Shown: positions 6,171-22,939 of the stretch, piece after piece | Numbering within the stretch: the stretch's first letter is position 1 | How the letters are laid out: every line of letters starts with the position of its first letter | Assembly: GCF_003231495.1 (NCBI RefSeq) | Contig: NZ_PQWO01000012.1 | Span: forward strand, 30,001 to 62,000 | Source: Acaryochloris thomasi RCC1774 | GTDB lineage: Bacteria > Cyanobacteriota > Cyanobacteriia > Thermosynechococcales > Thermosynechococcaceae | Reading direction: 5' to 3' | Length of the DNA stretch: 32,000 nucleotides | The notes under the pieces: generated by a model | Seen by the model: the letters and a program-made list of their open reading frames with translations, nothing else | Told to the model about the DNA's origin: nothing | Databases searched by the model: none | Made by a program: the position numbers and the translations under genes

Positions 6171-6854
6171 CTATTCAGCCACTCTATTGATAAAGTCCCT
6201 AATGTCTGCTGATCTTCTTCCACTATCTTCAGTTGTCCAAGCAACCGTCATATTAGCAGCTTTCAAATACCTGATAAGCCTAGCAATATCATCAGGATTC
6301 CCTTCAGTGTGAATATATAACTTTCTGAGTGTTTTTTCGCGTGGCTTTCCGTTAGAAACTCTTTTCTCACCAATCAAGACTGTTTTATCCTCGTCTAATA
6401 CAACTTTATCAGGGAGACTGGGTCTAATCTCCTGCCAATTTCTTCTTAAATTCACAATCTTTTCCTTTAATGAAAGCGACGTGGGAAAGGAAGAATTTAA
6501 ATCATTCAAAAATTTTTGCAATTCAAATCTTGACATTGAAGGATTGCCGGTAATCCCAAGTTCTTCTTTAATTTTATTTTCTTGCCAAGGCTTTATATAC
6601 ACATCGAACTTTTTGTGCATATGATTGCCATATAATTTCAAGTTCAGCATGTATCTGGTATTGCGCAAATACACAAAAAGTTGATCATATGTTTCGGTGT
6701 CTTCATCATCAAAAAACATCAAGAGCAGAAATCGTCCTTTCCCATTTTCAACTTCAAAGGCGAGGGTCTTCTCTTCTCTCTCTATTGCTTCAGTAAATAG
6801 CGGAAAAAGTCCTGTTAAATTAAATGCGTCTGACACATAATACTCCCAAATCAA
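6171..6854 (-). CDS. Hypothetical protein, 227 aa, AT-rich, no recognisable family
   Basis: This is the longest ORF in a markedly AT-rich stretch. Hand counts on four 60-nt lines gave 27-38% G+C, against 63% on one fadE line I counted. The start is TTG at 6854, and the first in-frame ATG is codon 45. A TATAAT hexamer lies on the minus strand at 6881-6876, about 21 nt upstream. No motif is recognised with confidence; there is only a weak Rx4H (RKLYIH, aa 177-182). Confidence 0.55.
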   Translation of the reverse strand: MIWEYYVSDAFNLTGLFPLFTEAIEREEKTLAFEVENGKGRFLLLMFFDDEDTETYDQLFVYLRNTRYMLNLKLYGNHMHKKFDVYIKPWQENKIKEELGITGNPSMSRFELQKFLNDLNSSFPTSLSLKEKIVNLRRNWQEIRPSLPDKVVLDEDKTVLIGEKRVSNGKPREKTLRKLYIHTEGNPDDIARLIRYLKAANMTVAWTTEDSGRRSADIRDFINRVAE

Positions 6855-7412: not shown

Positions 7413-7700
7413 CTAGGCAACCGATAAGCGTTTAACTTCGATACTGCCAACCGCTTGTTCAGCTTGCCAGAGGTCATACTGCATTTGTTGGTTCAGCCAA
7501 CTTTCTGCAGAAGTATCAAAAGCCTTGCCCAATCGAATCGCCATTTCAGGACTAATCCCTGCTCTACCGTTCAGAATTGCAGATAGGGTCTTACGGCTGA
7601 CTCCCAGCGCTTCAGCCGTTTCAGTCACGGTTAGATTGAGGGGCTCGATACAAAGCTCCTTAAGTACTTCTCCAGGATGTGGGGGATTATGCATTTTCAT
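7413..7700 (-). CDS. higA: HigA-family antitoxin (XRE-type HTH)
   Basis: 95 aa. HPGEVLKE...[57 protein letters not shown] is the classic HigA/VapI HTH pattern. Its ATG shares one base with the higB stop codon (TGATG at 7702-7698). Confidence 0.9.
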
Positions 7701-7978
7701 CAGTGGTAATCCTCAAGATTGACATCACAGGCATCAACGCCATCGAAAGTAAATGTAATTCGCCAATTTCCAGAGACTCTAACCGACCAGGTACCTTTCC
7801 GTTGACCCACTAGCTCGTGGAGAACGAGGCCGGGTAAATTCATGTCTTGTGGGGAGGTTGCAGCATTTAGACGAGCCAAAATCATCCGAATTCGCTTAAC
7901 GTGCTTTGCCTGAATCCCTCGGGTGGTTCCTGACTCGAAAAACTGCTTTAGCCCTCGGTGCTTGAAGCTGGCTATCAT
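7700..7978 (-). CDS. higB: HigB toxin (RelE/ParE superfamily, 'plasmid maintenance system killer' type)
   Basis: 92 aa. [11 protein letters not shown]...[45 protein letters not shown]...DVNLEDYH matches the HigB family consensus. The toxin-first gene order is typical of higBA. Confidence 0.9.
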
Positions 7979-7986
7979 TCATGAAT

Positions 7987-8012
7987 TGTAACCCATAACG
8001 TTACTAGTTACA
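7987..8012 (-). promoter_or_regulatory. Composite palindrome upstream of higB; candidate HigA operator
   Basis: TGTAAC-N3-TAACGTTA-N3-GTTACA. It is symmetric apart from the two 3-nt spacers and ends 9 nt upstream of the higB ATG. Type II toxin-antitoxin operons are normally autoregulated through such promoter palindromes. Confidence 0.45.
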
Positions 8013-8016
8013 GGCC

Positions 8017-8054
8017 ACAAAAATGATAGCGACCAAAGTAGGTCTGGGTATCAT
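8017..8054 (-). terminator. Candidate intrinsic terminator after fadE
   Basis: Minus-strand RNA reads ATGATA-ccca-GACC-tacttt-GGTC-gc-TATCAT followed by TTTTGTGG. This is a two-part stem (6+4 bp) with a short U tract, 26 nt downstream of the fadE stop. The stem is AT-rich, so the call is tentative. Confidence 0.35.
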
Positions 8055-8079
8055 GGCTAATCACCAATGTTCAGAATGC

Positions 8080-10503
8080 TTAGATAGCATTTGAAAACAC
8101 AGGAGTCTTACGATTTTTGTATCGCTGTTGATACTCCTCCAGCGTAAATGAATCAACTTGGATCATATCGGTGCGTAGTGTTTCTGCTTCTTGAATCAGG
8201 GCGGCATCCGTCTCACTAATGAGACCTGCCTCTAAGGCTGCATTGATCAGTTGAGCCGGTTTCGCTTTGGGCAGCTTCCCTAACTTGATTGCACTTTTAA
8301 CAGCTTTCGCAACAGGTTCCGCCTGAACCGATAAGCGCAGTGCTTGCTCCAGCCGCCCCAATGGTTCCTCAGGATGGTTGGGGATGTGAATATTGGCAGT
8401 GAGGCGATCGCGTCCCTCTCCCGGCGTTTGCAAGATCTGAGCCACCTGATGCCCCAACTGATCCGACGGCAATGTCCCTATCGGATTCAATTGCCACCAG
8501 CTCAGCACTAAGCCACCCAACAGCAGCGATAGATTACTGACAATTCCTTCAACCGCCTCCTGGATTTGAGCCAAGGCATACTGCATCGACCAGTGGACTA
8601 ACGGTAAATCCTCTACCTGGCGTCCCTCCGCTTCAAACCGCCGCAGTGTCGCTGACCCCAGATACATCCAAGAGAGTATATCGGCAAAGCGCCCCGTCAA
8701 CGTTTCCCGCCGCTTCAGGGAACCGCCTAACGAAAGCATGGCTAGATCGCTGAGATTGGCAAACGTCGCTGAAGCCCAAGCCAGCTTGCGATAGTAAATC
8801 GCAGTTTCATCTTGAACCGGAGAATGCACCAACCGCCCCTGAGTCAGACTTAGCAATCCAGCTCGAATCCCGCTGCGAATCATCAGACCCAGGTGGGACC
8901 AAAAGGCCTGATCAAAGGCGGCCACGTCCGATCGCTCCAGTGCCGAAATCTCCTCGTAGATATAGGGATGGCTGCGAATGGCTCCCTGACCGAAAATCAT
9001 TAGCGATCGCGTCAATATATTCGCCCCCTCTACCGTGATTGCAATGGGCATCGCTGTATAAATATTCGCCAGCAGATTCCGAGGACCGCGACAGATACCC
9101 GAGCCGCCCAAGATATCCATGCCGTCGATGACGACTGTTCGAGCGAGGTCAGTGGTTTGAGACTTTGCGATCGCACTGACAACCGCAGGTTGCTCCCCTT
9201 GATCCACCGCGCCACAGGTATACAATCTTGCGGCGTCAACAATATACGTTAATCCCCCAATGCGAGCGAGCGGTTCTTCAACCCCTTCAAAGCGACCGAT
9301 GGATAGCCCAAACTGTTTACGCACAACAGCATGAGCACCAGCAATCCGAGCGACCAGTTTTGTCACACCCGTACAGGTAGCCGGGAAGCTAATCCCCCGA
9401 CCCGCCGCTAGGGACTGCATCAACATCTTCCAGCCTTGACCGGCTTGCTCAACGCCACCGATGATTTGCTCAACAGGGATGATCACGTCATGACCTTCTA
9501 GGGGCGAGTTGTAGAACGGGACGCCCATTGGATCGTGGCGACGATTTTGAATGACGCCCGGTGTTTCTGTAGAAATCAAGGCGCAGGTGATGCCGGGGTG
9601 TTTACCTTTGCCGAGGAGATTATCAGGATCGTGGAGCTGGAAGGCCAAGCCTAGGAGAGTTGCGATCGCACCTAAAGTTATATACCGCTTCTGCCAGTTC
9701 AAACGGATATAAAGCTGGTCATCTTCGCCCTTAAATACCACACCACTAGAGGTAATGCTGGCAGCATCTGATCCGGCTTGGGGTTCCGTCAGGGCAAAGC
9801 AGGGGACCTCTTCTCCAGATGCTAAGCGGGGTAAATAGTTATCTTTCTGTTCTTCAGTCCCGTAGCGCAGCAGTAGCTTAGCAGGCCCCAATGAATTAGT
9901 AACGCCCACTGTGGCGACATGGGTGAAGGAGCGCGAGGCAAGTTTTGCCATCACAGCGCTGTAAGCCAGATTAGAGAAGCCAAGACCGCCATGTTTTTCG
10001 GGAATCATCATGCCAAAGAAACGTTCTTGCTTAAGGTATTCCCAAACTTCGGGAGGGAGATCCTGGCGCTGGTAGATTTCCCAATCACTTGCCATGCGGC
10101 AGACCTGCTCAACGGGACCGTCTAAGAAGGCTTGGATCTCTGGCGTGAGTTGTGGATAGGGTTCACTGAGAATACGCTGGAAGTCAGGCTTGCCCGTAAA
10201 GAACTCACCATCAACCCAAACATTTCCGGCTTCAATAGCCGCTCGTTCCGTCTCTGAAATCTTAGGAAAAAGCTTCCAGTCATGGATCAATTTCATAATG
10301 GGAGATGTAACCAGCCTGCAACGGAGCAGTGGAATATTCATCACCATTACTAAAGTCACGAAGACAGTCCAAAGCCAGACCGGCGCGTTGAGTGCGCCTA
10401 AAACAGCAGCACCATAAAGTGCCCAGATCCAGAGGGGAACGCCGATATACCCAAGCAAAATGAATGCTACAAGCAAGGTCGAAAAAGTGATCAGGAGCAT
10501 CAT
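8080..10503 (-). CDS. fadE: FadE-type long acyl-CoA dehydrogenase (about 807 aa, N-terminal membrane anchor)
   Basis: Strong colinear resemblance to E. coli FadE as I recall it: a hydrophobic N-terminus, then SETERAAIEAGNVWVDGEFFTGKPDF..., LTPEIQAFLDGPVEQVCRMASDWEI, LPPEVWEYLKQERFFGMMIPEKHGGLGFS. The ORF track starts at a TTG (10545). I prefer the ATG at 10503, which has AGGAGA 7 nt upstream. Confidence 0.9.
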   Translation of the reverse strand: MMLLITFSTLLVAFILLGYIGVPLWIWALYGAAVLGALNAPVWLWTVFVTLVMVMNIPLLRCRLVTSPIMKLIHDWKLFPKISETERAAIEAGNVWVDGEFFTGKPDFQRILSEPYPQLTPEIQAFLDGPVEQVCRMASDWEIYQRQDLPPEVWEYLKQERFFGMMIPEKHGGLGFSNLAYSAVMAKLASRSFTHVATVGVTNSLGPAKLLLRYGTEEQKDNYLPRLASGEEVPCFALTEPQAGSDAASITSSGVVFKGEDDQLYIRLNWQKRYITLGAIATLLGLAFQLHDPDNLLGKGKHPGITCALISTETPGVIQNRRHDPMGVPFYNSPLEGHDVIIPVEQIIGGVEQAGQGWKMLMQSLAAGRGISFPATCTGVTKLVARIAGAHAVVRKQFGLSIGRFEGVEEPLARIGGLTYIVDAARLYTCGAVDQGEQPAVVSAIAKSQTTDLARTVVIDGMDILGGSGICRGPRNLLANIYTAMPIAITVEGANILTRSLMIFGQGAIRSHPYIYEEISALERSDVAAFDQAFWSHLGLMIRSGIRAGLLSLTQGRLVHSPVQDETAIYYRKLAWASATFANLSDLAMLSLGGSLKRRETLTGRFADILSWMYLGSATLRRFEAEGRQVEDLPLVHWSMQYALAQIQEAVEGIVSNLSLLLGGLVLSWWQLNPIGTLPSDQLGHQVAQILQTPGEGRDRLTANIHIPNHPEEPLGRLEQALRLSVQAEPVAKAVKSAIKLGKLPKAKPAQLINAALEAGLISETDAALIQEAETLRTDMIQVDSFTLEEYQQRYKNRKTPVFSNAI

Positions 10504-10567
10504 GAGGAGGTCTCCTAAAGTAATTGACTGAGGAAATAGAAACAACGAAAAAGGTCGAGGGAAAACG

Positions 10568-11749
10568 CTAAAGCATCAAGTTCTCAAATACTCCTGCAGC
10601 ACCCATGCCGCCACCAACGCACATGGTCACGAGACCATAGCGAATGCCGCGCCGCTTCATTTCATGCAGTAACGTCGCGGTCAACTTCGCCCCCGTACAC
10701 CCCAACGGATGTCCAAGTGCGATCACACCTCCATTGACGTTCACAAGCTTTTCGTCCAGCCCCAACTTACGAATCACCGCCAGGGACTGCGAAGCAAAGG
10801 CTTCATTGAGTTCAATCAGACCTATATCGCTGAGCGATAGACCCACTTGCTTCAGAACTTTAGGTACTGCCTCCACCGGGCCAATTCCCATCATTTCGGG
10901 TGCAACGCCAGCAACGGCAAAGCCAATTAGCTGTCCCATCGGTTGAATACCCAGCTCCTGCACGATGCGTTCACTCATAACCACTGTGGCTGCAGCTCCA
11001 TCTGACATTTGGGAAGAGGTTCCTGCTGTCACTGTGCCATCGACCTTGAAAACAGGCTTGAGTTGGGCTAGGGCTTCTAAGCTAGTGTCAGCTCGTGGAC
11101 CTTCGTCAATCTCGAATAGTGTTTCTGTTGACTGGGTTTCGCCATTTTTATACAACGTTGTTTGTACAAGGAAGGGAACGATTTCATCCTTGAACCGGCC
11201 CTTTCGAATTGCAGCTAGAGCTTTTTGATGCGATCGCAACCCGAAGGCATCCTGATCCGCCCGCGAAATACTAAACGCCTCGGCAACATTCTCCGCCGTA
11301 ATCCCCATCGAGAGATAAGCTTCCGGGGCCTCAGATAGCAGTTCTGGATTGGGCGCTAAATCATGCCCCCCCATCGGAATCAGGCTCATGGACTCGGCCC
11401 CCCCAGCAACCATTACATCCGCATGTCCCGCGCTGATGGCCTGTGTTGCCATTGCGATTGTTTGCAAGCCAGATGAACAAAAACGGTTGACCGTACACCC
11501 AGCCACTGAGTGAGGAAGTCCAGCCCGCATTGCGATCACGCGACCCAAGTTGAATCCCTGTTCCGCCTCTGGGAAGGCACAACCAAAGATCAGATCATCA
11601 ATGCGATCGTGCTCTAGCTGAGGAACCCGTTGGAGTGCCCCTTTCACCACAGCCGCTCCCAGATCGTCCGGGCGACTATTTCGTAGCGTACCGCGAGGAG
11701 CTTTGCCGACGGCAGTACGGACGCTGCTGATAATATATGCGTTATTCAT
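10568..11749 (-). CDS. fadA: Acetyl-CoA C-acyltransferase (3-ketoacyl-CoA thiolase)
   Basis: 393 aa. Thiolase active-site blocks are present: NRFCSSGLQ (nucleophilic Cys), [35 protein letters not shown] start with GGGGA 6 nt upstream. Confidence 0.9.
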
Positions 11750-11793
11750 AATCGTCCCCTTGTCCAGTCATCATCTATATACGAGGTAGAAAA

Positions 11794-11830
11794 GGTGAGG
11801 AAGATGCAGAGGAGAGTTATCTCCCTCACC
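11794..11830 (-). other. Intercistronic mRNA stem-loop between the fadN-type gene and fadA
   Basis: On the transcribed (minus) strand: GGUGAGGGAGA - 15-nt loop - UCUUCCUCACC. This gives an 11-bp stem including one G-U pair. It sits in the 84-nt gap and could be a processing or stability element. Confidence 0.35.
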
Positions 11831-11833
11831 CGA

Positions 11834-14245
11834 CTAATTCCTCAGTGGCTTCTTCGTTCTCAACGTATGCATGATTCGCTCTTGCGTTTTCTTCTGACCA
11901 AATAAAGGCAAGAACATCTCCCGTTCTAAACCCAACAGATAGTCATCTGATACCATCGATGGTGCAGACAGGTCTCCCCCCGTAATTACATAGGCCAAAC
12001 GGTTCGCAAGGAAGCGATCGTATTCAGAGATGTAGCCCCCCTTTTGCATCAGATACGCTGCCGTCTCAAACAAAGCGCGGGCCGGTTTTCCCAGTACCTT
12101 GATTGCATTCCGCTTCGGCGGCGGCGCATAACCTTCATGGTCAAGGCGCAAGACTTCTTCCTTCGCGACATAAAGACGACGGTCGCTATTCATCACAATC
12201 TCTGCAGTTGGGGGCAGATATCCCCACTCCTGGGCTTCATAGGCACTGCCCGAGACCTTGGCTGTGCCGATAGTCTCAAAGGCTCGCTTCAAGAACGGCT
12301 GAATATCGCTGGGGTCATCCGTGGCCGCATGTTCCGCTGCCCAGGTTGCCATCGTCATAATGCCCCCAGCACCCGGAACTAGGCCGACGCTCAGCTCAAC
12401 CAAGCCAATGTAGGTTTCAGCAGCAGCTACGACATGAGGGCAGGCCATTACAAGTTCACAGCCACCGCCCAGAACACGCCCGCGAATGGCTGCCACAATG
12501 GGTTGTGGGAAGTAATGAAGCCGCAGCATCAGGGCTTGGAAGCGATCTAAGAGCTTTGCGATCGCACCATGCTCACAGTCGGCAAACACATTGACCCGAT
12601 CTTGATGTGAGAACTTCACCATATCGGCGAGGTTGGCCCCAGCCGAGAAATGCTCACCGTCGTTGCCAATCACCAGACCGCAATAATCGCCCTCTTCAAT
12701 CAGATCGAGTGCTTCAGAGAACCCATCAACGACCACCCGGCTGAGAGTATTCCCCTTTGAGCGAAACTCAAACAAGACCACACCATCGCCTATATCCAGC
12801 AGAGCGGCCTCGGAATTTTGCCACAGCGTTCGAGTAGGGTCGACCTTGAAGGGGGCCAAGGTGAATTCGTCGCGTGGCGTTTCTATTGGTCCATAGCCGC
12901 GCTGAGGTTGATACACAAAGTGGAGAGGATGGGGGGATTGGGTGAGATCCTCTTCCTCGCGGCCAATCTCTTGATAGAAGCTATGGGCACCGGCCCACTG
13001 CATCTGCTCAACCCAGCTCGGGACGGCAATGCCCGATGCCTGCATATCCTTGATGACAGTTTCAAACCCCAACACATCCCACATCTCAAAGGGACCGAGC
13101 CGCCAGCCAAATCCCCATCGCATGGCGCGATCAATCTCACTAGGGCTGTCAGCAATTTCAGGAATGCGGTGAGCGCTGTAGCTAAGAATCTTTAGGGTTG
13201 TTTGCCTGAAGAAAGTTCCTGCTCGCCCTGTGTCTTTGTAGAGAGCCTGGAGGCGTTCCGGTAGAGATTTGATTTTTGCGATCGCATCCAAGCCCCCCAG
13301 ATCTATGGGCCGAGCTTTTCGGTAGTTAAAGGTCTGAATATCCAGCGACAAGATTTTGCCGCCTACTTTTTTATAAAACCCCTCACCCGTTTTGGCCCCC
13401 AGATAACTGGCTTCCACCATTTGCCTCAAAGTCTGAGGCACTAAAAACACATCGCGGCTTTCATCGTCAGGAATCATCGGATACAGATTCTCGGCGACGT
13501 AGGTCAACGTATCGAGACCCACTAAATCTGCTGTCCGCAAAGTTGCTGACTTAGGACGGCCTACGAGTGTGCCGGTGAGAATATCAATTTCTTCGATGGT
13601 GTATCCCTGATCAGTCAGTGCTCGAATTCCCAGCAGACTCACAAACAGGCCAATCCGATTGCCAATAAAGTTGGGGGTATCTTTAGCAATCACCACCCCT
13701 TTGCCCAAATGGAGGCGACCAAACCACTCCAGCCGCTTCACAATCTCTGGATCAGTTGTAGATGTAGGAATCAGCTCTAGCAGCTTTAGATAACGTGGCG
13801 GATTGAAGAAATGCGTCCCCAAAAAGCGCTGCTGAAAGGATTTTGAACGCCCCTCAGCAATGGCGTGAATGGGTAAACCACTGGTGTTAGTAGACACCAC
13901 CGCGTCCTCACGGATGAAACCATCAAGGCGGGCCATGAGCTGTTGCTTAACGTCTAGCTTTTCAATCACTGCTTCAACCACCCAGTCCACGCTGGCGAGT
14001 CGATGCCAGTCTTCTTCAAAATTCCCGAGAATGACGCGACGAGATGTTTTTTCTGTAAAGAAAATCGGCGGCTTTTGCTTGAGCCCTTTTTTGAAGGCAG
14101 CTTCCACAAGGGCATTTTTGCGATCGCCAGCAGCAGGTAAATCCAGCAAGTAAACAATCAGACCTGCGTTGGCAAGATGGGCGGCAATCTGGGTGCCCAT
14201 GACACCTGCGCCCAGAACTGCGGCGGTGCGGAACGGTTTAAACAT
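11834..14245 (-). CDS. Bifunctional 3-hydroxyacyl-CoA dehydrogenase / enoyl-CoA hydratase (FadN-type domain order)
   Basis: 803 aa. N-terminal Rossmann motif AVLGAGVMGTQIAAHLANAG with the 3HCDH core (GTHFFNPPRYLKLLELI). C-terminal crotonase-fold region (GEHFSAGANLADM, GRVLGGGCELVMACPH). The dehydrogenase-first order resembles B. subtilis FadN, not E. coli FadB. ATG start with AGAGG upstream. Confidence 0.9.
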   Translation of the reverse strand: MFKPFRTAAVLGAGVMGTQIAAHLANAGLIVYLLDLPAAGDRKNALVEAAFKKGLKQKPPIFFTEKTSRRVILGNFEEDWHRLASVDWVVEAVIEKLDVKQQLMARLDGFIREDAVVSTNTSGLPIHAIAEGRSKSFQQRFLGTHFFNPPRYLKLLELIPTSTTDPEIVKRLEWFGRLHLGKGVVIAKDTPNFIGNRIGLFVSLLGIRALTDQGYTIEEIDILTGTLVGRPKSATLRTADLVGLDTLTYVAENLYPMIPDDESRDVFLVPQTLRQMVEASYLGAKTGEGFYKKVGGKILSLDIQTFNYRKARPIDLGGLDAIAKIKSLPERLQALYKDTGRAGTFFRQTTLKILSYSAHRIPEIADSPSEIDRAMRWGFGWRLGPFEMWDVLGFETVIKDMQASGIAVPSWVEQMQWAGAHSFYQEIGREEEDLTQSPHPLHFVYQPQRGYGPIETPRDEFTLAPFKVDPTRTLWQNSEAALLDIGDGVVLFEFRSKGNTLSRVVVDGFSEALDLIEEGDYCGLVIGNDGEHFSAGANLADMVKFSHQDRVNVFADCEHGAIAKLLDRFQALMLRLHYFPQPIVAAIRGRVLGGGCELVMACPHVVAAAETYIGLVELSVGLVPGAGGIMTMATWAAEHAATDDPSDIQPFLKRAFETIGTAKVSGSAYEAQEWGYLPPTAEIVMNSDRRLYVAKEEVLRLDHEGYAPPPKRNAIKVLGKPARALFETAAYLMQKGGYISEYDRFLANRLAYVITGGDLSAPSMVSDDYLLGLEREMFLPLFGQKKTQERIMHTLRTKKPLRN

Positions 14246-14289
14246 GACTTCAAACCTCTTTCTTATAAATAGTTGGAAATAAAACGCTT

Positions 14290-16335
14290 CTAGGAGGTTT
14301 CCAGCGTAAGCGTCGGGGATAGGGAATCGGCTGGCAAAGCTGGCTCGGGCTTCACCACCACCTGAGGAGCCGTAGCATACATCGCCTCAATGTCTGCCGC
14401 GAAAGCGGCACAGAAAGCCTCTCGATTGATTTGCCGTGTAGACGTCAGCAAGCCATTGGCGACGGTGAGGGAAGCATTGATCAATCGAAATTTTTTTGCC
14501 GTTGACCATGACGGCAGCGTTTGATTTGCCGCGTCAACCAAGGTCTGATACTCGGCAATCACCTGAGGATGTTCTAACAACGCCTCAAGATGAAGCCAAA
14601 GGCCAAGCTCTCGAGCCAATTTATGAATCTTACCCAGCCTCGGAAAGATCAGTAAGGCGCAGTAGGGCCGCTGATTACCAACGGCAACGGCTCGCTCAAC
14701 CAGTGGTGACTGCATCAAGTGCCGCTCAATCCATTCAGGAGCGACATATTTGCCGATGGACAGCTTAAATAGGCTTTTCTTGTGGCCGGTAATTTTTAAA
14801 AAGCCTTCGTCCGTCAATTCTCCGTAGTCGCCGGTATGGAACCAGCCGTTGGGCTCAATGGCATTCTGGGTTTCCACTGGATTTTTGTAGTAGCCCTTCA
14901 TGGTGTAGGGCGAGCGGGCCAAAATTTCGCCATCAGATGCGATCTCAACTTCAACCCCCGCAATCGGAACCCCCACAGTCCCGACCTGATTCAACGCCCC
15001 CCGATTGACGCAAAGAACTGCACTGGTCTGAGTGAGACCGTAGCCCTGCAACACCGGAATCCCCGCAGCAGAGAAGACCGTGGCTAACTCTGCTTTGAGT
15101 GCAGCTCCCCCACAGAGCAAATACTTCAAACGGCCGCCAAACCCCTCTCGCCACTGGCGATAGACCAACTGATCCGCCAGCTTCCGCTTCAGAGAGTACA
15201 GCCAGCCGGACTGCTGTCCTAGCTCATAGCGCTGCGCTAAATCAATAGCCCACTCGAGAATCACCTGCTTAAAACGAGGCATTTTGCGACCGCGTTCTTG
15301 AATCTTTTGATAAACCTTTTCTAGTAGGCGCGGCACCGTAGATAAAATCGTCGGCTTGACCTCTCGCAGATGCTTGACAATCCGCTGGGGTGTCGTGAAA
15401 TAAACGCTATGGCCGTAGCTAAGATGCCCGTACAGCATCACTCGTGCAAAAACATGAGTCAGTGGCAAAAAAGACAAAACCCTCTCCTCAGGCCCCGTAT
15501 TAAGACCGGGCATAGCGCTAAAGGCCGCTAGAGCATCACCCGCTAAATTTTCATGCGTAAGCATCACGCCCTTGGGCCGTTCACACACGTAGGGCGCACT
15601 GGGCTTCAGCCGCTGCTGCAGTGCTGCTACCATCCGAAAAACGGGCAGCACTTGACTTCTAAAAGCCTGACAGCGACCTGTGGGGCCTGCAACATACACA
15701 ATCGTCGCCACGTCCTGCGGAGCAATCTCAGCCCGCAGAGCCATCCTTGTTTGCTCAGAGAACTGCTCCCTTCCCCATGCCCGGACTGCGGCCAATGGAA
15801 AAAGCTGTATCTCTTCCGGCAGAGATGCCCGTAGAGCCACCAGATGATCACTCGAAACCGAATCATCTAAGCCATCAGCCACGATCATAAATTTGAGATA
15901 GGACAGCTCACACAAGCAGGGAGCCACCTGCTGTAGAACCTCAACACTAGAAACAACCAGAGCCGTTGCTTCACTGTGCTGCAAACTGAACACCATATTT
16001 TCAGGCGTCTCACCCATATAAATCGGGACGTTGACCAAATGGGCCAGCAGACAGCCCATATCCGCAAGACAGAAGTTAACGTCACTGTGCATCAACAGAG
16101 CAATCCGATCGCCCTGCGATAGACCCATCTCCCTCAGCCCCAAAGCCAGCTCTTCGACGGCAGTCCGAAACTCTTCCGTCGAGAGTGCTTGCCACCCCCC
16201 TCGGGTCCAGGTGTTGAACGCTTGAGGATTAGGATTATGTTCACAGGCTTCGTCAATCAAGGAGGGCAATGTGCGCCCCAAATACACCTCACGAGCAGTG
16301 GAAGGTGCACTATCAACCTTTTGCGACGTAAACAT
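14290..16335 (-). CDS. Long-chain fatty-acid-CoA ligase-type adenylate-forming enzyme (FadD/FACS/Aas superfamily) with an interrupted P-loop motif
   Basis: 681 aa. AMP-binding superfamily blocks are present: GWFHTGDYGELTDEGFLKITGHKKSLFKLSIGKYVAPE and QGYGLTQTS. The phosphate-binding motif is split as DVATIVYVAGPTG-[32 aa]-RPKGVMLTHENL (see findings). CoA versus ACP as acceptor cannot be decided from the sequence. Confidence 0.85.
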   Translation of the reverse strand: MFTSQKVDSAPSTAREVYLGRTLPSLIDEACEHNPNPQAFNTWTRGGWQALSTEEFRTAVEELALGLREMGLSQGDRIALLMHSDVNFCLADMGCLLAHLVNVPIYMGETPENMVFSLQHSEATALVVSSVEVLQQVAPCLCELSYLKFMIVADGLDDSVSSDHLVALRASLPEEIQLFPLAAVRAWGREQFSEQTRMALRAEIAPQDVATIVYVAGPTGRCQAFRSQVLPVFRMVAALQQRLKPSAPYVCERPKGVMLTHENLAGDALAAFSAMPGLNTGPEERVLSFLPLTHVFARVMLYGHLSYGHSVYFTTPQRIVKHLREVKPTILSTVPRLLEKVYQKIQERGRKMPRFKQVILEWAIDLAQRYELGQQSGWLYSLKRKLADQLVYRQWREGFGGRLKYLLCGGAALKAELATVFSAAGIPVLQGYGLTQTSAVLCVNRGALNQVGTVGVPIAGVEVEIASDGEILARSPYTMKGYYKNPVETQNAIEPNGWFHTGDYGELTDEGFLKITGHKKSLFKLSIGKYVAPEWIERHLMQSPLVERAVAVGNQRPYCALLIFPRLGKIHKLARELGLWLHLEALLEHPQVIAEYQTLVDAANQTLPSWSTAKKFRLINASLTVANGLLTSTRQINREAFCAAFAADIEAMYATAPQVVVKPEPALPADSLSPTLTLETS

Positions 16336-16603
16336 TACAAGCTAGAGCAGCCTAGCGCTACTCCCTCCGATAAACGACGCTGGCCCTGCCTCACAGAGGA
16401 ACCAATTGCGCTCCATCGATATATTTGCTTCTGAAAAAGCTTCGCCAGTGTGATCGCCGTGTTATTGAATTAACGCTATCTGCGGTGATGTTGAAGCGTA
16501 GCTTGAGTCACGTTGATTTCTATCAATGCAGCACGTGTTTTTCTGACTGCGACCCTAAAGTGCCTGAGCAACATAGCACGATCACTTTTAAGGTATATTT
16601 GAA

Positions 16604-16622
16604 GTATAGCATATATCTATAC
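16604..16622 (+). promoter_or_regulatory. Inverted repeat GTATAG-N7-CTATAC abutting the RHH gene start; candidate operator
   Basis: The perfect 6-bp arms end 2 nt before the ATG at 16625. A further GTATA copy lies about 12 nt upstream. RHH repressors typically bind such repeats in their own promoter. Confidence 0.3.
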
Positions 16623-16624
16623 GC

Positions 16625-16774
16625 ATGCCCCAAAATCAACTGTGCATAAGAATTCCAGAGCACGAGTTAAAAATACTCGATCGGTACGCAAAGAAGGCCA
16701 AGCGAACCAAGACAGATATTGTTCGTGAGTTCATTCGCTCCCTAAAAGAGTCCGACAAAGGCGAGCGTGAGTGA
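16625..16774 (+). CDS. Small ribbon-helix-helix (CopG/Arc/MetJ-like) DNA-binding protein, 49 aa; absent from the supplied ORF track
   Basis: My own translation: MPQNQLCIRIPEHELKILDRYAKKAKRTKTDIVREFIRSLKESDKGERE. It shows a short N-terminal beta-strand (LCIRIP), then helix-turn-helix spacing with RTKTDIVREFI, which is the usual RHH layout. It falls below the 60-aa ORF cut-off. No obvious Shine-Dalgarno sequence. Confidence 0.5.
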   Translation: MPQNQLCIRIPEHELKILDRYAKKAKRTKTDIVREFIRSLKESDKGERE

Positions 16775-17082
16775 TCCACTTGTTAATGGTTAAGTGTTGA
16801 GGTCGTCCGCACAGAGCCATTGGCGTGCTTCTTGACGTCCCACCTCAAGCATTAGTAAATCTCACGGGACTGGTAGAGGTAGGTCAATGGCTACGGTCCC
16901 CCTTTCTGTCAACAGGCCCTTTGTGGGGGGCGGTACCCAATTAGCACTCGTACTATACAAGTGCATTGATTGACATCTCTTATCACAAAATTAAATAATT
17001 TTTAATAATTTGCCGAAATATTCCGTTACATTTCTGGATGGATACGCTAGGCTAAAGGCTCACCAGCAAAAGTAATAGACCT

Positions 17083-17844
17083 ATGATTGCTAACCTACCA
17101 GTGCCTACTATGACTGCACCCCGTCAGCGCGGCGATCAGCTTGTCAGCAAGGTGGTTGAAACCGCCGTTGCTTCATTACTTAAGCAAACAGAGAAGCTAG
17201 AGGTTAAAGTCAGGGCTGAACCGGTATCAAAGCTGCTGCAGGGCAGTGTTGACGGGTTTGACTTCTCAGGTCAGGAGCTATTGATGCACAGTGGTCTCAG
17301 AGTTGACCGGATGGAGTTTTATCTACAGGCGCTCTCCATTGACTTTGGCTCTATCTTGAGGGGCCACGTCAAACTCCGGCAGCCGACACAAGCTTCAATG
17401 CGAATTGCGCTCACAGAAGACGATCTGACGGCCTCATTTAACACAGATTTTCTCAAGGAAAAGCTCCAGCAGCTCTCTTTTGAGGGGCAGCCCCTGATGT
17501 TCGAGCAGACTCAAATCACGATTAATGATGAAGATCAGTCGCTGAGGATGCAAAGTTGGGTGCGCAAGGGGCAGGCCGAGCAACTTTTTGAAATAGACAT
17601 CACAGCTCGCGTGGTGATTGAAGATCGGCATCGGCTGAAATTTGTCGATGTTAACTGTCGTGGTGATCAAGGGTCTGTAGAGCTAGGCCAGATGCTAACT
17701 CAGCATGTGAATAATCTGCTTGATTTAGACCAGTTTTCTTTAGAGGGCATGCAGCTTCGTGTGGATCAGCTGCGACTTAGAAATAAGCAGCTCACGCTAT
17801 ATGGTGTTGCCCACATTGAGAAATTTCCCCAGAGAAATGCTTAA
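17083..17844 (+). CDS. DUF2993 (LmeA-like) family protein
   Basis: 253 aa. The pattern LEVKVRAEPVSKLLQGSVDGFDFSGQELLMHSGLRVDRMEFYLQALSIDFGSILRG...LTEDDLTASFN matches my memory of cyanobacterial DUF2993 proteins. No search was run. Confidence 0.6.
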   Translation: MIANLPVPTMTAPRQRGDQLVSKVVETAVASLLKQTEKLEVKVRAEPVSKLLQGSVDGFDFSGQELLMHSGLRVDRMEFYLQALSIDFGSILRGHVKLRQPTQASMRIALTEDDLTASFNTDFLKEKLQQLSFEGQPLMFEQTQITINDEDQSLRMQSWVRKGQAEQLFEIDITARVVIEDRHRLKFVDVNCRGDQGSVELGQMLTQHVNNLLDLDQFSLEGMQLRVDQLRLRNKQLTLYGVAHIEKFPQRNA

Positions 17845-22294: not shown

Positions 22295-22939
22295 CTATAT
22301 GCGGCTGACCTTGGCCCTATAGAGAAGCTGGTCACCTCTCCGATAGCCCACGTATCGCACCTGCACAACATCATTCGTTTCGATAATGCCCTGCATCGGT
22401 TGGTGCTGTTGCGGATCATAGGAAGTTTCTTCGCCCACTGCACCAATGGGCCTGATGCCCCAGGCTTCCAAAAGCTGTTCCAACGGACGCAAGAGGGGCA
22501 GAATTTTAATAGCAGGTGCCTGAGGGTCTTGCTTGGCTTTATAGGCGGCAGTCGGCCAGTAGAGCAGCCACGGTTCCAGAACTTGCAGCGCAGCTTGCTG
22601 AAAGCTCTGCTCTAGGTCTTGCTGCTGTTGCTCTAGCTTCTGTTGCAGACGCTGATACTCAGTTTTTAGAGATAACAGTTCTGGAGAGCCTACCTCACTG
22701 CCAACGGGCCGTGGTTCACCTGGTGGCGTGAATTGCTCCAATAATTGAGAGAGGGGCGTTTTTAACGCGTGACTAAGCATCACTAGCGAAGCCACTGGCA
22801 ACGTCTGTATTTTCCCCTGCCGCAGGCGCCGAATTTGGCTCCGAGGCAGTCCCGTTGATTGATAGAGGGCCGAAAAGCTGGTGAGGTTCACCTGCTGCAT
22901 CAGCTGGTATAGCCGCTCTGTATAGTCAGACGAACGCAT
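22295..22939 (-). CDS. Fusion protein: XRE-type HTH N-terminus, Gln-rich coiled coil, and GrpE-like C-terminal domain
   Basis: 214 aa. The HTH region reads LTSFSALYQSTGLPRSQIRRLRQGK...LVMLSHALKTPLSQLL. The central LKTEYQRLQQKLEQQQQDLEQ segment looks like a coiled coil. The C-terminus WGIRPIGAVGEETSYDPQQHQPMQG...VVQVRYVGYRRGDQLLYRAKVSRI follows the GrpE beta-domain pattern (G.. I...G..FDP..H.A....V..V...GY......R.A.V.V). Its start lies 6 nt after the ccaA stop. Confidence 0.6.
   Translation of the reverse strand: MRSSDYTERLYQLMQQVNLTSFSALYQSTGLPRSQIRRLRQGKIQTLPVASLVMLSHALKTPLSQLLEQFTPPGEPRPVGSEVGSPELLSLKTEYQRLQQKLEQQQQDLEQSFQQAALQVLEPWLLYWPTAAYKAKQDPQAPAIKILPLLRPLEQLLEAWGIRPIGAVGEETSYDPQQHQPMQGIIETNDVVQVRYVGYRRGDQLLYRAKVSRI

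Follow-up and report, generated by a model that had tools for sequence, protein, structure and literature searches.

We analysed a 32-kb window of the genome of the cyanobacterium Acaryochloris thomasi RCC1774 (contig NZ_PQWO01000012.1; all positions follow the numbering of the window), which carries four fad-type genes on its minus strand. Judged from sequence comparisons, these genes probably constitute an old, mostly vertically inherited cyanobacterial lipid-catabolism operon, with a working core of an acyl-CoA dehydrogenase (FadE), a bifunctional FadN-type enzyme and a thiolase, and with a first protein that is a derived relative of acyl-CoA synthetases (ACS). The operon recurs widely, its genes are annotated, and a paper that reports expression data has already assigned it to beta-oxidation. 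The copy in the window is thus one more ortholog of an already noticed cyanobacterial fad operon and not a pathway discovery; the operon has been overlooked rather than being a new pathway.

Four intact genes and a core of three conserved enzymes

The initial annotation of this DNA, made from its letters alone, had described four co-directional fad-type genes on the minus strand at 8080–16335, and their open reading frames (ORFs), domains and gaps were all borne out. The first gene (14290–16335, −) has an intact ORF of 681 aa for an ACS-like protein of the ANL superfamily, which NCBI labels 'FadD15' and which is 100% identical to the NCBI entry from A. thomasi RCC1774, on a 183-kb contig. It is followed by intact ORFs for a FadN-type bifunctional enzyme with an N-terminal 3-hydroxyacyl-CoA dehydrogenase and a C-terminal enoyl-CoA hydratase (11834–14245, −; 803 aa) and for a 3-ketoacyl-CoA thiolase (10568–11749, −; 393 aa). 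The last gene (8080–10503, −) encodes an acyl-CoA dehydrogenase of the FadE type (VLCAD/ACAD9-like), which has a hydrophobic anchor at its N-terminus and carries an ACDH_C domain. With the fadE ATG at 10503, the intergenic gaps are 44, 84 and 64 nt. The longest fadE ORF (8080–10545, 821 aa) opens with a TTG 42 nt upstream of this ATG, and with that start the last gap is 22 nt. The genes are co-directional, their gaps are short and their order is conserved in 59 loci (see below), as expected of an operon. Indirect support for a single transcript comes from C. fritschii, where transcript levels of all four counterparts rise in concert.

FadN, the thiolase and FadE look functional, with intact catalytic residues and signs of purifying selection. 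In the FadN-type protein, Pfam places 3HCDH_N and 3HCDH (residues 8–189 and 193–292) ahead of ECH_1/ECH_2 (492–634), which is the FadN order. Its NAD-binding GxGxxG motif (GAGVMG, 12–17), the histidine of HFFNP (145–149) and the glutamate of LLELI (155–159), together with the hydratase glutamates of GGGCE (593–597) and VELSVG (616–621), line up with the catalytic positions of 6dv2, the alpha subunit of the mitochondrial trifunctional protein. The thiolase matches Pfam Thiolase_N/C and exceeds the cut-off of TIGR01930 (459.8 versus 240.55 bits), and its Cys-His-Cys set is intact (Cys91 in NRFCSSG, His347 in GHP and Cys377 in CVGGG, plus NEAF at 315–318); the best equivalog models are acetoacetyl-type and stay below their cut-offs (PRK07661, 568 versus 633). 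FadE combines Acyl-CoA_dh_N/M/1 with ACDH_C (PF09317, 331.7 bits) and scores 1046.7 bits on PRK09463, well above the cut-off of 600. Its closest solved relatives are ACAD9 and VLCAD, and its catalytic glutamate in EGAN (506–509 of the 821-aa ORF) aligns to that of ACAD9 EGTN. By hydropathy, the N-terminus is strongly hydrophobic over approximately residues 1–65.

The operon is widespread in cyanobacteria

Scanning one genome per species for FadE returned 192 relatives, the best 80 of which were examined as loci by tblastn (referred to here by L numbers). By title, nearly all of these 80 are cyanobacteria, belonging to many groups; a few are only 'uncultured bacterium', and one 'Gracilibacteria' bin looks mis-assigned. 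Among the carriers are Acaryochloris marina MBIC11017, Chlorogloeopsis fritschii PCC 6912, Fischerella, Calothrix, Chroococcidiopsis, Xenococcus PCC 7305, Pleurocapsa, Leptolyngbya JSC-1, Stenomitos, Oculatella and Symploca. The order ACS–FadN–thiolase–FadE was present in 59 of the 80 loci. In ten others the contig ends and the thiolase lies directly upstream of FadE, consistent with the four-gene order, and six are too short for gene order to be judged; the last five are described further below.

A neighbour-joining tree of concatenated FadN, thiolase and FadE (1941 columns) contained clades of Acaryochloris/Thermosynechococcaceae, of Pleurocapsales, of Nostocales with Chroococcidiopsis, and several Leptolyngbya-like ones, a pattern that would be expected for old vertical inheritance with loss. 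Ratios of non-synonymous to synonymous substitution (dN/dS) in eight close genome pairs were 0.03–0.14 for the FadN, thiolase and FadE genes and 0.08–0.29 for the first gene; between the window and L001 they were 0.07–0.10 for all four genes.

Model cyanobacteria are generally described as lacking beta-oxidation, as the initial annotation had pointed out, and the reviews and papers of 2021–2025 that we consulted say so of cyanobacteria (PMC10114076, PMC10088813, PMC11730487, PMC12596259). Figueiredo et al. 2021 surveyed 129 KEGG genomes, and the gene set found in some of them was judged incomplete by the authors (PMC8252387). Ho et al. 2019, on the other hand, list UYEDRAFT_05556 to 05553 of C. 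fritschii PCC 9212 as fadD, fadN, fadA and fadE under 'b-oxidation' (PMC6424891). In their RNA-seq data, all four transcripts were up 8.6–11.4-fold after 48 h of far-red light and 15–71-fold in rfpB/C mutants (PMC6424891). We take this operon, known from transcript data, to be an ortholog from its four consecutive locus tags and their annotations; the sequences that we compared are those of the sister strain PCC 6912 (L067), whose ACS-like protein, FadN, thiolase and FadE are 47, 66, 77 and 70% identical to those of the window. The genome paper of A. thomasi does not mention fatty-acid catabolism.

The novelty that had been claimed for the operon did not hold, given the recurrence of the same order in 59 of the best 80 loci, across many groups by record title, and the naming of the operon in PMC6424891. 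The claim had been made to depend on intact fad operons not being already widespread and characterised in cyanobacteria, and for the most part they are: they are widespread and have been named together with RNA-seq data.

The same operon type occurs outside the phylum

The pairing of a FadN-type enzyme with an enterobacterial-type FadE had been considered unusual. It is not, because the same four-gene order exists in Rhodothermus marinus and in a related metagenome-assembled genome (MAG); FadN with an E. coli-type FadE is a recurrent operon type and not an odd mixture. In R. marinus (L084), a TetR gene is followed by genes for an ACS (632 aa), FadN (803 aa), a thiolase (395 aa) and FadE (834 aa), with the same order and domain architectures as in the window and identities of 45, 56, 69 and 61%, respectively. 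Unlike that of the window, its synthetase is canonical (IIYTSGTTGRPKG, LTPTLKVRR), and the regulator gene is of the TetR instead of the ribbon-helix-helix (RHH) type. R. marinus also belongs to a different phylum, has a GC content of 65% and is not enriched in the octamer HIP1 (GCGATCGC). Among its canonical relatives, the first protein is closest to P0126 (42% identity to the window protein), which is encoded on the MAG contig (L081) and followed there by an 803-aa FadN-type protein, a 393-aa thiolase and an 835-aa FadE with ACDH_C. Named relatives of P0126 are Rhodothermales, and the identities of the L081 proteins to the cyanobacterial loci fall in narrow ranges (FadN 47–54%, FadE 53–61%), which fits a putative outgroup position. 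The cyanobacterial form of the operon differs from the Rhodothermus type chiefly in its degenerate first enzyme.

More distant systems share single features with the window. The FadN(FadB)–FadA–FadE proteins of Bacillus subtilis/Staphylococcus aureus have the FadN order in common with it (dehydrogenase N-terminal, hydratase C-terminal), and Staph_FadB is the top NCBIfam match of the window FadN (646.7 bits, below the cut-off of 999). Firmicute acyl-CoA dehydrogenases, however, are of another type, as the window FadE scores only 102.5 against 600 on AcCoDHFadEBacil and 61.3 against 600 on Staph_DH_FadE. With E. coli FadE it shares ACDH_C, an N-terminal hydrophobic region and a similar length, and its score on the FadE_coli model (NF038187; 893.3 bits versus an exception-level cut-off of 1300) marks it as of the same type but not as an equivalog. 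E. coli itself has a FadB with an N-terminal hydratase, a canonical FadD, and fad genes that are dispersed rather than gathered in one operon.

The first protein has lost core adenylation motifs

By fold and domains, the first protein is a member of the ANL superfamily. Pfam detects AMP-binding (PF00501, 193.7 bits) and AMP-binding_C_3 (PF23562, 50 bits). Its best NCBIfam match is FadD11, with 242 bits against a cut-off of 950; of the 79 models that match, the top 25 by score all stay below their cut-offs. An AlphaFold2 model has the ANL fold at a mean predicted local distance difference test (pLDDT) value of 81.7 and matches ANL structures at E = 1e-33 to 1e-28. Disorder is confined to the A8 loop and to an insertion, around which pLDDT is <50 at residues 220–234 and 244–249. 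The best superpositions of the model are with structures in the thioester conformation (4g37, 4eat, 5bsr, 5mss), a weak indication, as AlphaFold may return either ANL conformation.

In ANL enzymes, the P-loop and the A10 lysine are needed for the ATP-dependent adenylation half-reaction. We counted motifs in 58 operon-linked proteins and in 119 canonical relatives obtained from a search of 1.84 billion representative proteins. The A3 P-loop (canonically [ST][ST]G[ST][ST]GxPKG, counted as [ST][STA]G[ST][ST][GA]) was found in all 119 canonical relatives and in none of the 58 operon-linked proteins, where the corresponding positions vary (IYIPGVTGKPQG, IYIASETKRPKG, IYIPDERGQMQG and others). The aspartate of the A8 motif 'ITDRKK' is present in 91/119 and 0/58, and its arginine in 119/119 and 0/58, the operon-linked proteins always reading ITG-x-KK (ITGHKK in the window). 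For the A10 lysine motif (LTPTxKxKR in enzymes of the long-chain ACS type) the counts are 112/119 and 4/58; the window protein has LLTSTRQINR, with a glutamine in place of the lysine. The first protein of C. fritschii is likewise degenerate (IYIPGVMGEPQG, ITGLKK, no A10 lysine). Of the motifs that bind adenine and ribose, A7 TGD is universal in both sets (58/58 and 119/119), and A5 is kept in part: GYGxTE occurs in 117/119 canonical and 41/58 operon-linked proteins, the other 17, including that of the window (GYGLTQ), having GYGxTQ.

In the window protein, the P-loop region reads YVAGPTG and RPKGVML, separated by a 32-residue insertion (aa 221–252; 15580–15675, −), and its alignment to the carboxylic acid reductase (CAR) structure 5msc jumps from query residue 220 to 254. 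This insertion is conserved in L001–L005, and similar ones are found in L015, L041, L055 and L068; in total, 10 of the 58 operon-linked proteins have P-loop insertions of 31–40 aa, that of C. fritschii not being among them. A weak pattern (…P[VI]F…[AT][IL][QR]xxL…) is common to the insertions of distant lineages. Because insertion-bearing proteins lie near the base of an outgroup-rooted tree of the ACS-like proteins, the insertion may be ancestral to the cyanobacterial clade and have been lost later.

Despite this loss of motifs, the first gene is not decaying: its ORF is intact in all orthologs, its dN/dS is 0.08–0.29, the fold is confidently modelled, and many residues are invariant across 77 orthologs (among them His294, Arg298, Arg445 and Lys519/520/524/529). 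Our search of the literature for ANL pseudo-enzymes, or for synthetases that lack the lysine, turned up no relevant paper. According to reviews, the usual enzyme behind cyanobacterial 'FadD' annotations is the acyl-ACP (acyl carrier protein) synthetase Aas. Cyanobacterial Aas (Slr1609 type) belongs to the same ANL/long-chain-ACS-like superfamily as the first protein; motif loss sets the operon-linked clade apart from the 119 canonical relatives compared here.

What does the first protein do? One answer, in line with the initial annotation, would be that the operon specifies a complete, conventional beta-oxidation and that its first gene encodes a normal fatty-acyl-CoA synthetase, dependent on ATP, whose motifs have simply diverged. 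In favour of this are the FadD position of the gene, the canonical nature of the Rhodothermus counterpart, the ANL fold and the purifying selection, as well as the co-induction with the other three genes. The retention of A7 and, in part, of A5 and the many invariant residues suggest a real active site, and a few Pleurocapsales-type orthologs keep xPKG and LKVKR. Even so, we consider conventional FadD activity unlikely, because the protein has lost its P-loop, the Asp/Arg of the A8 hinge and the A10 lysine, and the motifs that it retains bind the adenosine moiety. The P-loop is variable both in sequence and, through its insertions, in length; the A10 lysine is absent from 54 and the A8 Asp/Arg from all 58 operon-linked proteins; and it is the P-loop and the A10 lysine that adenylation is established to require. 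The canonical relatives from the same search, in contrast, keep the P-loop and the A8 arginine without exception and nearly always the A10 lysine motif. The statement of the initial annotation that every step of beta-oxidation is provided for is therefore not supported, since fatty-acid activation by a protein without three core adenylation motifs is unproven.

It is less probable again, though conceivable from the motif pattern, that the protein is an adenylation-dead, repurposed ANL enzyme that keeps its AMP and pantetheine side (A5, A7 and the Lys-rich A8 strand), has lost the parts that handle ATP and would perform the thioester half-reaction only. One possible form of such an enzyme would be an AMP-dependent acyl-ACP:CoA transacylase that takes chains activated by Aas, which is universal in cyanobacteria, into CoA-based beta-oxidation. 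If true, this idea would explain CoA-dependent degradation in a phylum built around acyl-ACP.

A linked hydrolase suggests membrane lipids as a possible substrate

In 40 of 60 loci, the operon is immediately preceded on its own strand by a gene for a Hydrolase_4 protein (PF12146, lysophospholipase/monoacylglycerol-lipase-like, ∼290–300 aa). In four loci it is instead found just downstream of FadE. It is present in A. marina and in two Acaryochloris MAGs, and it also adjoins the C. fritschii operon (L067, 2387–3292), unlike in the window. Beyond the hydrolase, the sole recurrent neighbour is an ABC-ATPase cluster (8 loci). Another canonical relative of the first protein, P0139 (on a JGI contig), adjoins a GDSL lipase gene, which echoes the cyanobacterial pairing of Hydrolase_4 and synthetase.

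In the route that we propose, the membrane lipids of the cell itself would supply the acyl chains, released by the linked hydrolase in those genomes that have it; this substrate is suggested because a lysophospholipase-like hydrolase is encoded alongside the operon in most relatives. The trigger could be energy limitation, as the Chlorogloeopsis ortholog is switched on when light energy is limiting. The chains would have to be converted to acyl-CoA before they are shortened, for which we see three options. The ACS-like protein could catalyse an unorthodox ATP-dependent reaction; it could be confined to thioester chemistry, acting for instance after Aas to move acyl groups from ACP to CoA with AMP as a cofactor; or it could be non-catalytic, with another synthetase supplying the acyl-CoA. 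The membrane-anchored FadE-type enzyme would then oxidise acyl-CoA to enoyl-CoA, its electrons probably entering the membrane quinone pool, the FadN-type enzyme would hydrate the enoyl-CoA and oxidise the product, and the thiolase would release acetyl-CoA. The expected yield of the cycle is acetyl-CoA, NADH and reduced quinone.

Sequence does not reveal the range of substrates, and the main ones might instead be other CoA esters, such as short-chain acyl-CoAs or 3-hydroxybutyryl-CoA, in connection with polyhydroxybutyrate, or branched and isoprenoid-derived acids, in which case the operon would not serve fatty-acid beta-oxidation proper. The acetoacetyl-type of the best thiolase equivalogs, sub-cut-off as they are, would fit such a role, as would the reviews, which report acyl-ACP only, and not acyl-CoA, as the thioester of cyanobacterial primary metabolism. 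We nevertheless regard this as improbable. FadE is of the VLCAD/ACAD9/E. coli FadE type and has a membrane anchor, the ancestry of the first protein lies among long-chain ACS-like enzymes, most genomes have a lysophospholipase-like hydrolase gene linked to the operon, and the whole unit is homologous to the Rhodothermus fad operon.

A divergent regulator gene and a candidate operator

The RHH gene and the promoter/operator motif described here are new parts of the operon region. The gene (16625–16774, +) lies 289 nt from the operon start in divergent orientation and encodes a 49-aa RHH (CopG-type) protein, a candidate regulator of the operon, that matches Pfam RHH_1 above its cut-off (22.8 versus 20.5 bits, E = 8.8e-5). 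It was detected in 12 loci (62–85% identity), always divergent and 278–765 nt upstream of the ACS-like gene, in the Acaryochloris clade, Xenococcaceae/Pleurocapsa, a Leptolyngbyaceae MAG and a Pseudanabaena MAG. Between the same taxa, the RHH protein is better conserved than the ACS-like protein.

Adjoining the RHH start codon is a palindrome, GTATAG-N7-CTATAC (16604–16622), which is invariant in six Acaryochloris-clade sequences. The motif ATATGCTATACT overlaps this palindrome and, read on the operon strand, resembles an extended −10 element, TGCTATACT; the site is a candidate promoter/operator for the operon. Across 1.38 Mb of loci, ATATGCTATACT was counted 13 times, in 12 cases on the operon strand and 236–437 nt upstream of the ACS-like start. 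In L067 of C. fritschii, unlike in the window, neither an RHH gene nor ATATGCTATACT was detected. The arrangement suggests two divergent promoters under the control of the RHH protein, which is predicted to bind the palindrome; in the Acaryochloris lineage, expression of the operon would then probably be set by this protein sitting over the promoter.

The 5′ leader (16540–16600, operon strand; columns 44–95 of alignment A1), which is conserved in the Acaryochloris clade, contains a second inverted repeat, ACCTTAAA … TTTAAGGT, with ∼28 nt between its arms, and a conserved block, GCGCTGCATTGAT, without a match in Rfam. A further operator is one possible role for them, an RNA structure in the leader another. 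The long 5′ region holds no known riboswitch or other RNA element, since Rfam at gathering thresholds gave no match anywhere in the window and ARAGORN found neither a tRNA nor a tmRNA in it.

Points against the reading and remaining alternatives

Several observations weigh against reading the four genes as a working lipid-catabolism operon. The degenerate first enzyme would leave acyl activation unexplained. The Hydrolase_4 gene is absent from the window, where a tblastn search for a remnant gave nothing better than E = 0.1, and the recurrent neighbours of the operon include no electron-transfer flavoprotein (ETF), ETF-quinone oxidoreductase, FadL-type transporter or auxiliary isomerase/reductase. 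A scan of 7800–17100 for sigma-70 promoters and terminators found fewer sites than shuffled sequences did and nothing useful at the junctions or the operon ends. The gene set is also not always one unit, as 5 of the 80 loci, including that of a complete Altericista genome, have a stand-alone FadE. On the experimental side, a deuterated-fatty-acid label persisted in the strains tested by Figueiredo et al., whose operon status is not stated in the part of the article available to us (PMC8252387), and we found no published enzymology or labelling that demonstrates fatty-acid degradation in operon-bearing cyanobacteria.

The stand-alone FadE proteins (L012, 10010–12448; L014, L021, L030 and L034) are ∼72% identical to FadE of the window. 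No thiolase, FadN or ACS-like gene lies upstream of them, so some Acaryochloridaceae-related genomes appear to retain FadE alone, or to hold it as a second copy. In the complete Altericista genome, the neighbours of FadE are DprA, Uma2 and an NMT1-type ABC transporter.

Taken to the extreme, the A. thomasi operon could be a decaying and perhaps silent relic that has lost its hydrolase and whose first gene has degraded further, through the change of the A5 glutamate to glutamine and the P-loop insertion. The absence of Hydrolase_4 from the window, when A. marina and two Acaryochloris MAGs have it, and the GYGLTQ of the window protein would both be in line with decay. This is very unlikely, however: none of the four ORFs is disrupted, each has a low dN/dS in the comparison with L001, the insertion and GYGLTQ are common to the whole clade, and the RHH gene and the promoter motif are conserved.

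The operon also carries the marks of native DNA. HIP1 occurs 25 times in the window, against 0.56 expected, and none of 100 shuffles reached 25. Eight of these copies lie within the operon: fadE has four, the fadN-type gene three and the thiolase gene one, and the first gene is free of HIP1. These counts agree with those of the initial annotation (about 25 octamers, eight of them within three genes and none in the synthetase gene), and the cyanobacterial context that it had described was reproduced too, with a beta-carbonic anhydrase (given there as carboxysomal ccaA), a Uma2 and a pentapeptide protein in the flanks. It had further suggested comparing codon usage with the flanking genes, and here the operon matches: GC content, GC content at third codon positions (GC3) and codon usage of the four genes are within the range of the neighbouring genes, and their relative synonymous codon usage correlates with that of the pooled flanks at r = 0.85–0.91. 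We therefore reject contamination or recent horizontal import from a heterotroph, in agreement with what had been argued at the outset, as the first gene without HIP1 and the occurrence of this operon type in Rhodothermales count for little against eight HIP1 copies inside the other three genes, a composition not distinguishable from that of the flanks, nearest relatives that are all cyanobacterial (65–85% identity, versus 45–69% for Rhodothermus) and a gene tree that tracks cyanobacterial taxonomy.

Other genes in the window

Downstream of fadE, at a distance of 101 nt and on the same strand, lies a gene for a HigB-like toxin (7700–7978, −; PF05015, 66 bits), beside an HTH_3 antitoxin-like gene (7413–7700, −). 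An ORF of 227 aa (6171–6854, −) without a Pfam match has a GC content of 0.363 and a GC3 of 0.346, versus ∼0.52 for all its neighbours, and is probably recently acquired DNA beside the toxin–antitoxin pair. Just past the RHH gene, 17083–17844 (+) encodes an LmeA-like phospholipid-binding protein (PF11209, 122 bits), which does not recur beside the operon in the other loci. Further along are a gene for a dihaem cytochrome c (PF09626; 21554–22072, +) and one for an HTH_26 and GrpE-like fusion protein (22295–22939, −), the latter adjoining the beta-carbonic anhydrase gene.

Implications

The value of the finding lies in its conflict with the reviews, in a first enzyme without adenylation motifs and in the newly seen RHH/operator module. 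Beta-oxidation that is called 'absent' in cyanobacteria should read 'absent from model strains', because a conserved, selected and taxonomically coherent fad operon is present in at least 59 species-level genomes, with transcripts reported in one genus. The assumption of absence underlies isotope labelling for natural-product discovery, ideas on the re-esterification and secretion of free fatty acids, and the metabolic models of biofuel strains. The degenerate synthetase-like protein presents a clean biochemical puzzle, for which Rhodothermus offers a canonical counterpart for comparison. Finally, the operon offers a direct way into the question of how cyanobacteria that live in shade or in biofilms might use membrane lipid as fuel under limiting light.

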